A stretch of 19,742 nt of DNA, taken from the IMG/VR virus record IMGVR_UViG_2681813004_000004; one strand, given 5' to 3'. Both the position numbers and the translations under genes were made by a program. The stretch comes from a virus (lineage: Duplodnaviria; Heunggongvirae; Uroviricota; Caudoviricetes). Under the pieces are notes generated by a model. The model saw only the letters and a list, made by a program, of their open reading frames with translations. It had not been told where the DNA came from and did not search any database. Shown one piece after another: positions 1 through 4,892 of this stretch (positions within the stretch are counted from its first letter, which is position 1; the number at the start of each line of letters is the position of its first letter).

Positions 1-2
1 GT

Positions 3-110
3 CTGACACTGGGACTGAATGCGCTGACGCTGACGGATGTTACAAAAAATGCAGCGTATGGCGTTGAGATAGAAAGTCTGGTGCTGGAGATAAATGCACC
101 GGCAGCATAA
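3..110 (+). CDS. 3' end of an upstream CDS that enters the window (C-terminus ...LVLEINAPAA); product not recognised
   Basis: Frame is open from the window edge and ends in tandem stops TAA TAA (108-113); no start codon in window. Confidence 0.4.
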   Translation: MTLGLNALTLTDVTKNAAYGVEIESLVLEINAPAA

Positions 111-111
111 T

Positions 112-153
112 AAAAAAAGAGCCAGCGACTGACCTGAAAGAAGACGCTGGCTA
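112..153 (-). terminator. A-run plus GC hairpin (agccagcg / cgctggct, about 17-nt loop); would read as hairpin followed by U-run on the minus strand
   Basis: Inverted repeat 120-127 / 145-152 with A7 at 112-118. Loop is long for an intrinsic terminator, so function is uncertain. Confidence 0.25.
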
Positions 154-259
154 AAAGGCCTTATATGTTTGTAGAGACTTATTTTTCACAGACAGCAATG
201 ATGCCTGTCAATATATTATCAATATGCGGATTGTTTCAGTTACAGATGCTTTATTAAGG

Positions 260-302
260 AAAAAAACAGCCAGCACTGACTTTCGGTGGAGAGGTGCTGG
301 CT
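260..302 (-). terminator. Second copy of the A-run plus hairpin module (agccagcac / gtgctggct)
   Basis: Inverted repeat 268-276 / 294-302 preceded by A7 at 260-266; same architecture as 112-153 with compensatory stem changes. Confidence 0.25.
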
Positions 303-557
303 CAGAAGGATAGTTGGATTTCACATGATACTTATGCCTGGCGGTATATTTTCTGACAGACAGTGACGGGTGTTGTCAAGATATTGTGTCATTTATAACC
401 TGAATCAGGGGAGGCCGGAATGTTATCTGGCATTTTTAGCAGAGCCTGAATGCCATAATCACGGCTCCCGGAGTTGGCCGTCAGTGGGTGACACTGGTGG
501 TTTTTTTGTTTTTCTTTACTTTCATTTTCTGTCGGCGGTGACGGAGACATACATCAG

Positions 558-764
558 ATGGAAAAAATCACAACGGGTGTGTCATACACCACGTCAGCGG
601 TGGGGACGGGATACTGGTTACTGCAGCTGCTGGACAAAGTCTCTCCGTCCCAGTGGGTGGCAATCGGTGTGCTGGGGAGTCTGCTGTTTGGCCTGCTGAC
701 GTATCTGACTAACCTTTATTTCAAGATTAAAGAAGATAAGCGTAAGGTGGCGCGGGGAGAGTAG
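558..764 (+). CDS. S: Class II holin (pinholin), phage 21 S-like, 68 aa
   Basis: Protein [26 protein letters not shown]...[22 protein letters not shown] closely resembles the S21 pinholin as I recall it (two TMDs, charged C-tail); GGAG upstream of ATG; lies upstream of a SAR endolysin. Confidence 0.88.
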
Positions 765-1019
765 TCGATGAATAAACAATACGAACTGGTTGTAAAATGA
801 ATATTTCTAACTGAAAAAACGTTCCATGAGGTAAGAAAAGGTCACAGGCAATCAATAACAGGACGTGATGAAAGACCCTTGCATTTGTGCGCTTTCTCTT
901 TAGATAGCAGCAGATACTGAAAATCTGAGTTGTCGGGGAGTCAGGGATACAGCTGTGCAAGAGTTGGTCATTGTGATTCCATTGAAATCCTGTATGCCAT
1001 GAAGGGCAGGATTTTATGG

Positions 1020-1334
1020 CTACCTGAGCTTTGGTGATAGTAAGTTGAAAATTCGCATTTTTTGCTGACATGCGTAACGAGAATCCCATAAGCAGGGAGG
1101 ACTTAATTCTTCATTAACCCATGCGTTGATATTATGTTTCAGCCGTTGAAGCATCAGCGGTGTTAATGTTGTGGTAATAATATCCAGCGTTTTATGTGAG
1201 ATCTTACCGTAAGGGTCTGCAAGAATGCTGCTTGTTGCTTCGTTATTATCTGCCATCAGAAGAAGTAACTCTGATTTAACGTTTTCTGTCATTAGTTGTA
1301 AAAATCTTCTGCGCAAACTTTCTTTACTGTTCAT
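1020..1334 (-). CDS. Hypothetical protein (104 aa) encoded antisense within an AT-rich insert between holin and endolysin; candidate moron
   Basis: ATG-initiated minus-strand ORF in a visibly AT-richer segment (about 765-1450); TATAAT-like -10 element on the minus strand near 1408-1416; no recognisable domain. Confidence 0.35.
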   Translation of the reverse strand: MNSKESLRRRFLQLMTENVKSELLLLMADNNEATSSILADPYGKISHKTLDIITTTLTPLMLQRLKHNINAWVNEELSPPCLWDSRYACQQKMRIFNLLSPKLR

Positions 1335-1451
1335 TTATATGGCTTCATTTGTTGTAATCTGCTGCGTCTCAAGGGATATGTTTATGAGAGCGACCATGAG
1401 TGTTGGATTATATACCTAACATATCAAGGGATTAGAAATCGATAAATCCCC

Positions 1452-1985
1452 ATGAACGAAAAAATAAAATACGGCCTGTCGGCTGCCGTTCTGGCGCTGA
1501 TTGGTGCAGGTGCTTCTGCGCCTGAAATCCTCGACCAGTTTCTGGATGAAAAGGAAGGTAACCACACCACGGCATACCGTGATGGTGCGGGGATCTGGAC
1601 CATCTGCCGTGGTGCCATTCTGGTGGATGGTAAGCCTGTTATTCCTGGCATGAAGCTGTCAAAGGAAAAATGCGACCGGGTTAATGCCATCGAACGTGAC
1701 AAGGCGCTGGCATGGGTGGAGAAAAACATCCGGGTGCCGCTGACCGAACCCCAGAAAGCGGGGATCGCGTCATTCTGTCCGTACAACATTGGCCCCGGTA
1801 AGTGCTTCCCGTCGACGTTTTATAAACGAATTAATGCAGGCGATCGAAAAGGTGCCTGTGAGGCGATTCGCTGGTGGATTAAGGACGGTGGCAGAGACTG
1901 CCGTATCCGTTCAAATAATTGCTACGGTCAGGTCTCACGGCGTGACCAGGAGAGCGCGCTGGCGTGCTGGGACATCGACAGATAG
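1452..1985 (+). CDS. R: SAR endolysin (phage lysozyme, GH24 T4-lysozyme-like), 177 aa
   Basis: N-terminal Gly/Ala-rich weakly hydrophobic segment (LSAAVLALIGAGASAP) typical of a signal-anchor-release domain, followed by a lysozyme-like catalytic region; resembles R21 and Stx-phage endolysins from memory. Confidence 0.9.
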   Translation: MNEKIKYGLSAAVLALIGAGASAPEILDQFLDEKEGNHTTAYRDGAGIWTICRGAILVDGKPVIPGMKLSKEKCDRVNAIERDKALAWVEKNIRVPLTEPQKAGIASFCPYNIGPGKCFPSTFYKRINAGDRKGACEAIRWWIKDGGRDCRIRSNNCYGQVSRRDQESALACWDIDR

Positions 1986-2078
1986 CAGAATATTTTCCTG
2001 AAAAATGACGTTGGCCAACGCGGGTGGATAACACGAAATCCTGAAAACTGGTAAAACCTAAGTGAATAAAAGTAAAAA

Positions 2079-2116
2079 CCCCGTTTGTTGGCAGCAAGCG
2101 GGGTTTTGTGTTTTCT
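2079..2116 (+). terminator. Rho-independent terminator between R and Rz
   Basis: ccccgtttg / caagcgggg stem (9 bp, one G-U), 7-nt loop, followed by ttttgtgttttct. Confidence 0.6.
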
Positions 2117-2205
2117 GACCTTGAGTAAGGCAAGGGAGAAATTATGGGTAGGGAGGTACTTTCCCTGTGAGGAAGTATAAAAGATTCTTTCTGAGGTTGT
2201 CCATT

Positions 2206-2319
2206 ATGAAAGGCATTGAAGTGGAGACGCCAGCCAGTCTGGATTTAACAAGAGCGGCAGCTTTTGCCATTCGTATTGTGGCCATTGCTGTTCTGGTCTG
2301 GGCAATCCGTTGGTGGTGA
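2206..2319 (+). CDS. Candidate small hydrophobic peptide (37 aa, MKGIEVETPASLDLTRAAAFAIRIVAIAVLVWAIRWW); stop overlaps the Rz start region
   Basis: ATG preceded by GAGG about 8 nt upstream; C-terminal TM-like segment; TGA at 2317-2319 is immediately followed by the Rz ATG at 2321. Below the ORF-track length cutoff. Confidence 0.25.
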   Translation: MKGIEVETPASLDLTRAAAFAIRIVAIAVLVWAIRWW

Positions 2320-2320
2320 T

Positions 2321-2788
2321 ATGAACCGTGTTCTGTGCGTGGTTATCATTGTCCTGCTGGTGGCCTGTGGTGCGCTTAGTCTGGGGCTGAATCATTACCG
2401 TGATCACGCCATCATCTACAAAGAGCAGCGCGATAAAAAAGCCAGTGAGCTGGAGCTGGCGAACGCGACAATTACTGATATGCAGATACGCCAGCGTGAT
2501 GTCGCTGCACTTGATGCCAGATACTCGAGGGAATTAGCCGATGCGAGAGCTGAAAATGAAACTCTGCGTGCTGATGTTGCCGCTGGTCGTAAGCGCCTGC
2601 GGATCAACGCCACCTGCTCCGGTACCGTGCGTGAAGCCACCGGCACCTCCGGCGTGGATAATGCAACCGGCCCCCGACTGGCAGACACCGCTGAACGGGA
2701 TTATTTCATCCTCAGAGAACGGCTGATGGCAATGCAGAAGCAACTGGAAGGAGCACAGGAATATATCCGTACCCAGTGTATACCGTGA
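2321..2788 (+). CDS. Rz: Rz i-spanin (inner-membrane spanin subunit), 155 aa
   Basis: MNRVLCVVIIVLLVACGALSLGLNHYRD... N-terminal TMD followed by a coiled-coil-like region; strong resemblance to lambda Rz. The ORF-track start at 2264 is a TTG extension not supported by homologs. Confidence 0.88.
   Translation: MNRVLCVVIIVLLVACGALSLGLNHYRDHAIIYKEQRDKKASELELANATITDMQIRQRDVAALDARYSRELADARAENETLRADVAAGRKRLRINATCSGTVREATGTSGVDNATGPRLADTAERDYFILRERLMAMQKQLEGAQEYIRTQCIP
2541..2726 (+). CDS. Rz1: Rz1 o-spanin lipoprotein, embedded in the +1 frame of Rz, 61 aa
   Basis: Entirely inside Rz in a different frame; signal peptide with lipobox LVVSAC then a proline-rich mature region (PPAPVPCVKPPAPPAWIMQPAPDWQTPLNG), as in lambda Rz1. 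Confidence 0.8.
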   Translation: MRELKMKLCVLMLPLVVSACGSTPPAPVPCVKPPAPPAWIMQPAPDWQTPLNGIISSSENG

Positions 2789-3253
2789 TGTTTTGTTATG
2801 AAGGTGTTACTGGTAACGTTAAGGTAATTTAACAAAGAGTCAGTTCCGGACTTTATAGTGTGCTCAGTTCATGGCCAAAAACGATTTCTGTGATAAATAT
2901 TTTGAATATTATTTACAGGTAAATGGAGTGGGGCACATGGATAGAAATATTACAATAGAGAATGAAGTATATGCCCGTATTGTATGGGCAGAGAAGGCAA
3001 AAACACGGTAATTCCGTGTGTTGCCATGATACCTGATTGGCAGAATAGTTGTTTGGTTTTGAGTATATAGTCAGCGTTTTTTGTTCAGTAATTGCTCCCT
3101 CAAAAAATAATAAAATAAGGTGATTATTTTTGTTTATTATTTAGTTTTTTTTGTGTGTTGTTTTATTGTTTTTGCGTGGTTTGTTTTTTATTGTTATTTC
3201 ATTAAGGGAAGGTAAATTCAGGATGGCAGTCTGTAGATAATCGGAGGTCACTT

Positions 3254-3568
3254 ATGCTACATGATCACGTGGCAGAATGTCTGGAGAAAAAAGGACTGTA
3301 CCGGAGAGCAGCTGAACGATGGGCAAAAGTGATGGTACAGCTAAGTGATGACCAGAAAAGAAAAGTAGCGGCACAGAAACGAGCAGAGTGTTTGCGTAAG
3401 GCGCGCCGGACTCCGGTTTCACCGGTGAACCTGACCGAAATAAAACAAGCGGTCAACAGACTACATTCTGAGTTGGGAATGGGATTTGAAGAGCGGCGGG
3501 TATTCCGACGATATAAAGGGACAGGAGAACAGAATACGTCCGGAAACGCGCGGTCAAAAAAATGCTAA
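3254..3568 (+). CDS. PerC-family-like transcriptional regulator (Pch-like), 104 aa; moron
   Basis: GGAGG about 6 nt upstream of ATG; the motif LEKKGLYRRAAERWAKVM matches my recollection of the PerC/Pch family; basic C-terminus; sits between Rz and cos where lambdoid prophages carry morons. Confidence 0.6.
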   Translation: MLHDHVAECLEKKGLYRRAAERWAKVMVQLSDDQKRKVAAQKRAECLRKARRTPVSPVNLTEIKQAVNRLHSELGMGFEERRVFRRYKGTGEQNTSGNARSKKC

Positions 3569-3874: not shown

Positions 3875-4081
3875 AATGTTGCCCCGTATTCAGTGTTGCT
3901 GATTTGTATTATCTGAAGTTGCTTTTACGCTAATTTGATGCAGATCAATTAATACGATACCTGCGTAATAATTGATTATTTCTCGTGGTTTGATGGCGTA
4001 CACACATGTCGTGATAAACCTCATGTAGATGATAATTATTATCATTTTCGTGGGTCCTTTCCGGCGATCCGACAGGTTACG

Positions 4082-4093
4082 GGGCGGCGACCT
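4082..4093 (+). other. cosN cohesive-end sequence GGGCGGCGACCT, copy 1, preceded by a cosQ-like segment
   Basis: 12-nt sequence identical to the lambda cohesive end as I recall it, preceded by ...tcctttccggcgatccgacaggttacg (lambda right-end / cosQ-like). Confidence 0.7.
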
Positions 4094-4187
4094 CGCGGGT
4101 TTTCGCTATTTATGAAAATTTTCCGGGGTTATTGCTCAATAATTATTATCATTTTTCGGGTCCTTTCCGGCGATCCGACAGGTTACG

Positions 4188-4199
4188 GGGCGGCGACCT
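4188..4199 (+). other. cosN cohesive-end sequence GGGCGGCGACCT, copy 2 (the copy adjacent to cosB)
   Basis: Same 12-mer and same flanks as copy 1; followed directly by the R3-I1-R2-R1-like array. Confidence 0.75.
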
Positions 4200-4235
4200 C
4201 GCGGGTTTTCGCTATTTATGAAAATTTTCCGGGAT

Positions 4236-4382: not shown

Positions 4383-4892
4383 GTGGCTACGCAGACTGAA
4401 GTTGCCAGGCATTTAAGTCTGACCGATCGCCAGCTTCGCAGATTGCAGAAATTGCCGGGTGCCCCGATATCGAATAAGCGAGGGCAACTGGATCTGGATG
4501 CCTGGCGCGATTTTTACATATCGTATCTGAGGAGAAGTAAAAACGATGTGCCTGATGGCGATAGCGAAGACGACTATGAGGAGAAATTGCTTATTGCCAG
4601 ATGGGAACTGACAGCAGAACAGGCTGTTACACAGCAGTTAAAAAATGAGGTGTCAAAAGGAAAACTTATTGACACCGGGTTCTGTATTTTTGCCCTCAGT
4701 AAGCTGGCAATGGCGTTATCCAGTACGCTTGATTCCATCCCTTTATCCATGCAACGACAGTTTCCTGATTTAACACCGCGCCATCTTGACCATCTGAAAA
4801 CCCTTATTGCGAAGGGGGCAAATCAGTGTGCGCGGGCGGGGGATAAATTACCGGATTTACTCGATGAATATATCAGAGCAACAACTGAATAA
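4383..4892 (+). CDS. nu1: Terminase small subunit (Nu1-like), GTG start, 169 aa
   Basis: C-terminal half (FCIFALSKLAMALSSTLDSIPLSMQRQFPDLTPRHLDHL...LLDEYI) resembles lambda Nu1; N-terminal region is HTH-like; GAGGTGAGGA precedes the GTG; directly downstream of cosB. Confidence 0.8.
   Translation: MATQTEVARHLSLTDRQLRRLQKLPGAPISNKRGQLDLDAWRDFYISYLRRSKNDVPDGDSEDDYEEKLLIARWELTAEQAVTQQLKNEVSKGKLIDTGFCIFALSKLAMALSSTLDSIPLSMQRQFPDLTPRHLDHLKTLIAKGANQCARAGDKLPDLLDEYIRATTE

Follow-up and report, generated by a model that had tools for sequence, protein, structure and literature searches.

The DNA analysed here (the window) is a 19,742-nucleotide stretch from a virus of the class Caudoviricetes, IMG/VR record IMGVR_UViG_2681813004_000004, and its first 3 kb (1-3000) form a lambdoid lysis cassette. 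Pfam profiles identify a phage-21-type class II holin, S, at 558-764 (P21 holin S, PF04971), an endolysin, R, at 1452-1985 (Phage_lysozyme), and the spanin subunits Rz (PF03245) and Rz1 (PF06085), the gene for the second being nested in that for the first. Our subject is the 335 bp that separate R from Rz (1986-2320), which contain a GC-rich hairpin followed by a small open reading frame (ORF) abutting Rz (Table 1). Since the corresponding genes rrrQ and rzpQ of the Escherichia coli K-12 prophage Qin overlap by 4 nt, the gap is a true insertion at the R/Rz junction, as a preliminary description of this DNA had held. We find that the ORF is, judging from how it varies among relatives, a genuine protein-coding gene for a small single-pass membrane protein, and that the hairpin and the ORF, by their linkage across many genomic settings, are one cassette.

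The evidence for coding is comparative. A total of 595 complete E. coli records, among them O157:H7, contain the region around the ORF (1900-2400) at no less than 99% identity, and a set of 86 loci with both R and Rz comprises 39 distinct gaps. A profile search returned at least 277 clusters at 90% identity from Escherichia and Salmonella, and an exhaustive HMMER search, which reached Yersinia and Klebsiella, returned just 35 representatives at 50% identity, so that the family is narrow. The 37-aa form of the peptide matches phrog_4493 (5.5e-16), phrog_1115 (2.5e-5) and phrog_3246 (5.1e-5), all families of unknown function, and its long form gives a PHROG match with E = 1.6e-33. Within the window type, the 14 substituted sites of the ORF are split 10, 4 and 0 over codon positions 3, 1 and 2; in 13 long-form alleles the variable sites number 41, 20 and 11 at the same positions, and the ratio of nonsynonymous to synonymous polymorphism (pN/pS) is 0.22, with 0.37 for nine short-form alleles. 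The reading frame is free of stops in every allele, four of the five other frames are full of them, and the insertions and deletions that distinguish the forms are multiples of three. The peptide is intact in 61 of 65 window-type loci, compared with R in 59 of 63 and Rz in 61 of 63. The conservation check proposed in the preliminary description therefore points to purifying selection across Escherichia, Salmonella and Yersinia relatives, and the possibility it had left open, that the ORF arose by chance, is rejected by the number of clusters, the low pN/pS and the proportion of intact copies. Family members are also carried by inducible or plaque-forming phages (PhiR12, PhiR5 and GER2).

Several observations weigh against this conclusion. 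The antisense frame that shares third codon positions with the ORF also has a low pN/pS (0.32/0.46). This is an expected artefact of the shared positions, yet it means that the substitutions alone leave the strand unfixed; Shine-Dalgarno sequences and start codons argue for the plus strand, the antisense start being poorly kept. An antisense ORF at 2285..2142 was considered as a gene and rejected: 6 of the 21 variants lack its ATG, and in the long-form loci the gene is not overlapped by any antisense ORF that has a start codon and reaches 25 aa. Frameshifted copies exist beside intact R and Rz: in four loci, which represent two deletion events, 4-5 nt have been lost at a slip site, GCCAGCCAG. 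The preliminary description had named a broken ORF in otherwise retained DNA as the observation that would speak against a gene; such copies occur in these four loci only, a frequency in keeping with background decay of prophages. A related small ORF, type C (phrog_6632), carries two stops in Stx2a phages (Stx, Shiga toxin). This ORF, whose last residues before the stop are GQIRWW, was compared between L003 (2657-2796), L004 and L010. In CP-1639 and UTI89 it is uninterrupted, and in the Stx2a phage Stx2_14040 it has TGA and TAG in frame with its nucleotides otherwise retained. Lastly, the peptide does not appear in the supplements of the ribosome-profiling study of intergenic small genes in strain Sakai. 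The broken copies, together with the lambdoid phages that have no such cassette, imply that any role of the peptide is dispensable.

The ORF as first described, with its GAGG and its TGAtATG before Rz, is present in full, but its assignment as a 37-aa gene stands only in part. A short form of that length exists, and the gene is probably longer, with a second, upstream start at GTG 2167 that would give 50 aa. Among long-form relatives, E. coli loci use ATG as the upstream start, Salmonella loci GTG and S. salamae TTG, in every case with a Shine-Dalgarno sequence before it. In the window the TGA of a mini-ORF overlaps the GTG (GTGA), and the Salmonella counterpart of this mini-ORF reads MCREVCSL followed by a stop. 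The N-terminal extension differs between the forms by in-frame 3-nt indels and by synonymous AGA/CGA and CTG/TTG swaps, and it is kept as protein in homologues of 35-40% identity (MRQYKRILMRLTM, MTVYRKTFRLRISM and MKLYRKFFRMRLSM); the 13-codon extension is thus probably coding as well. At the same time, the internal Met is conserved and, in the relatives examined, is always preceded by GAGG or GGAGG, usually formed by an AGG Arg codon, a codon that is rare in E. coli. The internal GAGG is retained even where the residues it encodes change (LRLT vs VEAN). That the internal ATG keeps its own GAGG makes two products likely, and the pattern strongly suggests two in-frame starts, which would give isoforms of 50 and 37 aa. 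The long form adds five positive charges, carried on a basic amphipathic N-extension.

The membrane segment seen in the preliminary description is borne out by both hydrophobicity scales and structure prediction. Its best 17-mer, AAFAIRIVAIAVLVWAI, has a mean Kyte-Doolittle value of 2.5 and a summed Hessa dG of -0.66, comparable to the transmembrane domain (TMD) of the neighbouring pinholin, and AlphaFold2 predicts a helix over residues 22-49 of the 50-aa form, with a predicted local distance difference test score above 90 across the C-terminal 20 residues. The family consists of single-pass proteins of 37-62 aa with a G-x-E-x-x-A-P motif and an A-F-A-I-[RK] transmembrane (TM) helix, and the short forms end in [IV][RK]WW, a C-terminus conserved in Escherichia, Salmonella and Yersinia relatives. 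In the window the codons of the RWW end make up the Shine-Dalgarno-like sequence of Rz, GGTGGTGA, and this arrangement strongly suggests that translation is coupled from the small ORF into Rz. We considered whether the tail is kept merely to encode that sequence and rejected the idea, since RWW tails also occur in members with no Rz behind them (L111 and L112); on this distribution, the [IV][RK]WW end is a protein motif.

The same junction bears on the explanation that grants the peptide no function at all, in which the ORF either is a chance reading frame or acts as a leader that brings ribosomes to the Rz start after the insertion. The stop that abuts the Rz ATG, the W-W-stop codons that double as a ribosome-binding signal, the few frameshifted copies with Rz intact and the very small size of the peptide would all be accounted for. 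However, it is the amino-acid sequence that is under purifying selection, the same family is found without Rz behind it, the motifs, including an RWW tail away from Rz, are kept at 35-40% identity, and the long forms in lysis loci have a spacer and Shine-Dalgarno sequence of their own before Rz. The comparisons largely refute this explanation, and we consider it very improbable.

Table 1. Features of the R-Rz gap and its 3' neighbour in the window
Feature	Position	Strand	Remarks
Linker 3' of R	1986..2074	+	86-95% conserved in R-Rz gaps of many Stx1/Stx2 and other lambdoid prophages
GC-rich hairpin, A tract 5' and T tract 3'	2075..2117	.	Stem 2075-2107; always 5' of the small ORF
Shine-Dalgarno sequence AAGGGAG	2132..2138	+	Serves the upstream ATG directly in long-form relatives; here precedes an 8-codon mini-ORF
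Mini-ORF MGREVLSL (stop)	2144..2170	+	Inside a 25-nt insertion relative to E. coli long-form loci
Shine-Dalgarno sequence GGGAGG	2151..2156	+	GTG 2167 starts 10 nt downstream
Long form of small ORF, 50 aa (probable)	2167..2319	+	GTG start; basic N-extension (M)RKYKRFFLRLSI, acidic linker with conserved AP, TM helix, RWW end
Candidate sigma-70 promoter, TGGACA-18-TATACT	2174..2203	-	Same relative site in L009, L098 and L102
Internal Shine-Dalgarno sequence GAGG	2193..2196	+	9 nt 5' of ATG 2206; formed by an AGG Arg codon
Short form of small ORF, 37 aa	2206..2319	+	ATG 2206, TGA 2317-2319; RefSeq WP_000675931.1, hypothetical protein
Junction GGTGGTGAtATG	2312..2323	+	W-W-stop codons form a Shine-Dalgarno-like sequence for Rz; one base (T) between the stop and the Rz ATG
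Rz (i-spanin, PF03245) with embedded Rz1 (PF06085)	2321..2788; Rz1 2541-2726	+	Downstream neighbour, outside the cassette

Upstream of the gene lies the hairpin, in which the preliminary description had recognized a strong intrinsic terminator. A terminator-like structure is indeed found, on both strands: the stem, with the core CCCCGTTTGTTG/CAGCAAGCGGGG, is followed by TTTTGTGTTTT and scored as terminator-like in a consensus scan. Plus-strand folding gives -21.8 kcal/mol (z = -3.97), a value that none of 200 shuffles equals; on the minus strand it folds at -14.2 kcal/mol and is followed by the T tract TTTTTACTTTTATT, so that the hairpin is bidirectional. With its stem-loop and T tract it is a candidate bidirectional Rho-independent terminator. 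Eighteen hairpins taken from different contexts all lie 5' of the ORF, at -16 to -30 kcal/mol, most of them with T tracts on both sides, and their stems differ by compensatory changes (CCCCG/CGGGG, CGCCCG/CGGGCG and GGCCCCG/CGGGGCC). Folding energy alone does not discriminate, as random 130-nt regions attain values of -19 to -15 kcal/mol in 19-56% of cases, and the case for the hairpin therefore rests on its position, its flanking A/T tracts and the compensatory changes. In the 140-nt upstream part RNAalifold detected a convincing conserved structure on neither strand, and the plus-strand hairpin was not cleanly recovered.

The hairpin and the ORF had been described as two separate features; their linkage across contexts indicates that they are a single unit, a cassette whose parts travel together. 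Divergent members repeat the same arrangement of GC-rich hairpin, 25-65 nt spacer, Shine-Dalgarno sequence and ORF. Many Stx1 and Stx2 phages share the first ~156 nt of the gap, including the hairpin. Beyond the hairpin they carry either the window type, a long form of 48/60 aa, small TM ORFs that are unrelated (phrog_4906 and phrog_6632) or an array in which as many as four small TM ORFs are tightly coupled (L002/L008). In these arrays (L002, 612-1176; L008, 764-1327; vB_EcoS-569R3 and strain THO-015) a 642-bp R-Rz gap holds four different single-TM ORFs before Rz, and their stops and starts overlap or abut.

The settings of the cassette are broad. It follows GH24 lysozymes (GH, glycoside hydrolase), a GH19 endolysin that is accompanied by a class I holin and, in the company of other holins, an M15 peptidase and a GH108 muramidase; it is also found after an antirepressor gene, between tail genes I and J, at the tail-fibre end, in a myovirus baseplate cluster and at a prophage end beside host genes, and after a major capsid gene (L111) it forms a tandem [hairpin-ORF][hairpin-ORF] array. 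Everywhere it is co-oriented with the surrounding late genes. In L098, L102, L104 and L110 another plus-strand terminator stands before that of the cassette. Several contexts outside lysis regions have, ahead of the cassette, an ordinary terminator of the upstream gene, which assigns the cassette hairpin to the ORF. A specific link to the pinholin/SAR-endolysin system (SAR, signal-anchor-release) was considered and rejected, because the cassette also follows GH19, M15 and GH108 endolysins with other holins. Its presence behind four unrelated types of endolysin and behind unrelated holins, and far from lysis genes, indicates that it probably has no specific partner in R or Rz; from this distribution it is an accessory late-operon element and not a dedicated part of a pinholin/SAR-endolysin/spanin set.

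Two of the settings have features of their own. In Yersinia enterocolitica a remnant by tmcA/ypfH (L107-L109, 2440-3101), listed in 1647 blocks of the collection index, has no holin or endolysin and begins with a 49-aa member that ends in RWW and leads through TGAtATG into an intact Rz; a 17-bp perfect inverted repeat there replaces the usual hairpin. At L100 (2619-2670) and L101 (2620-2803), which have an M15 or GH108 endolysin, RWW-TGAtATG leads into a small lipobox protein (...LLVGC...), whose frame is whole in L101 and broken by a stop in L100, with no Rz gene called there.

Promoter scans bear on when the gene would be transcribed. No plus-strand promoter-like site was found in five contexts (the window, L009, L098, L102 and L104). 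On the minus strand a candidate sigma-70 promoter is present in four of these five; it is the sole promoter-like hit in the window gap and in each ~600-nt scan of three related loci, and one of three such hits in a scan of 3 kb of the window, which is fewer than in shuffles. Its -35 element varies but is acceptable (TGGACA, TAGTCA, TTGTCA and TTGGCC in the window, L009, L098 and L102).

This candidate promoter raises the possibility of a module resembling type I toxin-antitoxin systems, in which leaky expression of a membrane toxin is silenced in lysogens by a cis-antisense RNA of ~75-110 nt, made from a constitutive minus-strand promoter within the 5' part of the gene, that would cover the upstream start and its Shine-Dalgarno sequence and end at the hairpin. 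In support of this, the promoter-like site lies at the same relative place in the window, L009, L098 and L102, its -10 (TATACT) is the reverse complement of a conserved AAGTATA, and the putative 111-nt RNA folds with z = -3.4. A good minus-strand T tract is present in nearly all contexts and is sometimes better than that of the plus strand (L099), and the extra plus-strand terminators already mentioned stand before the cassette hairpin. The peptide also matches type I toxins in size, hydrophobicity and prophage location (PMC2887945). However, the -10 is missing or damaged in L104, in L111 (first ORF), in L112 and in Yersinia, where the hairpin persists, and AAGTATA encodes a conserved K-Y, so that its conservation may reflect coding. 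Where G-U pairs occur the hairpin is more stable on the plus strand, in the window as given above and in L003 (-15.9 vs -9.4 kcal/mol). Moreover, the coupled arrays of L002 leave no space for one antisense RNA per gene, the orientation with the late genes is invariable, no Rfam family covers the element, and the peptide shows no similarity to Hok, Ldr, Ibs, TisB or Zor. Compared with hok/sok, zorO/orzO and ibs/sib (PMC2887945, PMC3919570 and PMC8621323), the cassette shares a prophage-borne hydrophobic peptide of at most 60 aa, a candidate promoter for a cis-antisense RNA and a terminator suitably sited to end that RNA; it differs in that its antisense RNA is putative, the promoter motif is not universal and the genes stand in translationally coupled late-operon arrays. 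The likeness to type I toxins is confined to the character of the peptide. We regard a type I-like module as unlikely.

An alternative that takes adjacency to Rz to be incidental is that the gene is a moron expressed in the lysogen, from an undetected promoter or by read-through, and of benefit to the host or prophage, for instance through superinfection exclusion or envelope modification. Lambdoid morons, as in HK97 and HK022, are extra genes with their own promoter and terminator that stand between genes adjacent in related phages. The cassette resembles them as an inserted small gene with a Rho-independent terminator, co-oriented and present at several late-operon intergenic sites. It is inserted between genes that are adjacent in other prophages, some of its positions (the tail-fibre end, the prophage end by host genes, between tail genes) are typical of morons, terminators bracket it in L098 and L102, and it is kept with Rz in the degraded remnant that is widespread in Y. 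enterocolitica. It differs from morons in that the terminator is 5' and not 3' of the gene: the window ORF has no terminator following it, and downstream terminators were found in L098 and L102. Further against a moron, no plus-strand sigma-70-like promoter was detected in the five contexts, where the distance from hairpin to start is just 25-65 nt, there is no PADLOC match, and the stop of the window ORF is probably coupled to Rz, which is a late gene. A lysogen-expressed moron seems unlikely.

The explanation we favour is that of a late-gated accessory cassette encoding a dispensable, membrane-active modulator of lysis. Lambdoid late operons are transcribed by a Q-modified polymerase that is resistant to terminators. 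A cassette inserted in temperate Enterobacterales phages, composed of a terminator hairpin and a gene for a single-pass membrane protein, would be shielded by its upstream terminator from other transcription. Lacking its own promoter and lying immediately behind the terminator, the gene would be expressed essentially only late, when read-through by the Q-modified polymerase would make the peptide together with the lysis and structural genes. Gating of this kind would suggest that the product is harmful if made in a lysogen. The peptide might then adjust when, or how efficiently, the cell lyses, for example through a disturbance of the membrane potential or through a holin/antiholin-like interplay of its isoforms. 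A small cationic peptide anchored at the membrane interface could serve any holin/endolysin/spanin set, and action with any set would fit the promiscuous contexts. We give the package as a whole an even chance of being right, its functional part being the weakest.

The proposal has its difficulties. The cassette occurs outside lysis regions, which weakens a function specific to lysis, and many lambdoid phages, Qin among them, do without it. The promoter scans were consensus-based, so that a weak or non-sigma-70 promoter could have been missed, and the T tracts are weak in the most distant loci, where the hairpin may not terminate. The suggestion in the preliminary description that the peptide modulates lysis is a possibility: late co-expression and coupling to Rz would fit it, whereas the same cassette is also found far from lysis genes. 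A bolder possibility is that this is an unrecognized, horizontally shuffled regulatory cassette in which a terminator-gated, dual-start membrane protein, possibly checked by an antisense RNA that ends at the same hairpin, uses its two isoforms at the cytoplasmic membrane late in infection to time holin triggering or the release of SAR endolysins. The effect on timing would be independent of the holin, endolysin or spanin carried, and arrays that place as many as four peptides in tandem ahead of Rz would amount to an adjustable "lysis-clock" addition. We hold this version to be possible but unlikely.

Comparison with known systems helps to place the peptide. The window ORF is a direct sequence member of PHROG 4493/1115/3246 and of WP_000675931.1, and PGAP annotates the same ORF; these entries give no function, start-site analysis, hairpin or range of contexts. 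Dual-start holin/antiholin pairs are known from lambda (S107/S105) and phage 21 (S71/S68). The family is like them in being a small membrane protein of the lysis cassette with two probable in-frame starts, of which the longer product would have more N-terminal positive charge, and unlike them in its single TMD, in an N-extension of 13-18 residues compared with 2-3, and in occurring in cassettes that already encode a holin; the likeness is confined to this putative arrangement of starts. The peptide has the TMD and the position in the lysis cassette expected of a holin; it ends in ...AIRWW, with no hydrophilic charged C-terminal tail, and has no Pfam holin match at E<=10. Nor does it resemble a spanin, since it ends 2-3 residues past the TM helix and lacks a lipobox, and Rz/Rz1 are separately present. 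In P2, lysA is a membrane-protein gene between the endolysin gene K and the spanin genes lysB/lysC, and it affects the timing of lysis; LysA has ~140 aa and several TMDs. The likeness to lysA is one of position only, that of a non-essential membrane-protein gene between endolysin and spanin genes. The present family is set apart as single-pass, 37-62 aa long and also found outside lysis cassettes.

Searches of reference collections added no further relatives. The peptides had no matches among Pfam, NCBIfam, PADLOC and PDB sequences. In Rfam, searched with the whole window at the gathering threshold and with the gap at E<=10, the best hits were the rimP leader (E = 0.095) and ohsC (E = 1.8), far below thresholds. 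A scan of genome contigs with a profile of the family alignment gave no confirmed locus, presumably because these were species representatives without the prophage, and we found no publication on this ORF in the literature.

Other features of the region deserve mention. The linker 3' of R was not seen in copies of the cassette outside lysis regions. Within it, a block at 2026-2043, GGATAACACGAAATCC, is near-invariant between hypervariable flanks (2008-2025 and 2044-2058); it is able to fold into a hairpin of 4-6 bp, which Salmonella extends by compensatory GC pairs. A 24-codon ORF with a TTG start in the linker was rejected, as it is not conserved and the window has TTC at its start. Another insert separates the holin gene S from R and contains a reverse-strand ORF of 104 codons (1020-1334, minus strand), called by PGAP as a 90-aa hypothetical protein (WP_000138558.1) and without a match in Pfam or PADLOC. 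From its sequence and from R21-type enzymes, the N-terminus of R presumably resembles that of a SAR endolysin. Upstream of the holin gene are two similar GC-rich hairpins, at 119-152 (gccagcgactgacc...gctggc) and 268-303 (gccagcactgac...gctggc), each with a run of A before it and neither with an Rfam match at E<=1; they could be terminators or the 3' ends of small RNAs (sRNAs), like the Pas sRNAs reported near holin/lysozyme operons. The prophage sRNAs Pas, AgvB and AsxR were rejected as content of the R-Rz gap, being sited upstream of the holin gene.

On the 3' side, Rz is followed by a PerC homologue, a duplicated cos-like repeat, Nu1/terminase and then more ORFs on the same strand. The PerC-family (Pch-like) transcriptional activator gene, at 3254-3568 on the plus strand (PF06069, E = 3.8e-44), is a virulence-regulator moron in the same late region, between Rz and cos/Nu1. 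A perfect 76-nt direct repeat (4052-4127 and 4158-4233, copies 106 nt apart) lies just 5' of the Nu1-like gene at 4383-4892. Both copies contain GGGCGGCGACCTCGCGGGTTTTCGCTATTTATGAAAATTTTCCGG, which we take to be a lambda cos/left-end sequence, and cos thus appears to be duplicated in the window.

Altogether, this analysis provides a corrected model, with two probable starts and a 50-aa form, for a gene already annotated as hypothetical, and recognizes terminator and ORF as one mobile unit; the architecture of the cassette, its proposed dual start and its wide range of contexts seem not to have been described before. The lysis cassettes of lambdoid and Stx phages are usually told as holin, endolysin and spanin, with the rest taken as junk or morons, yet here a gene inside the lysis cassette of hundreds of pathogenic E. 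coli, O157:H7 included, is preserved like R and Rz. If it proves to be a gated toxic peptide or part of a type I-like module, it would represent a new family among prophage-borne membrane toxins. If it is true that the peptide affects the timing of lysis, this would bear on the release of Shiga toxin, which depends on phage lysis.

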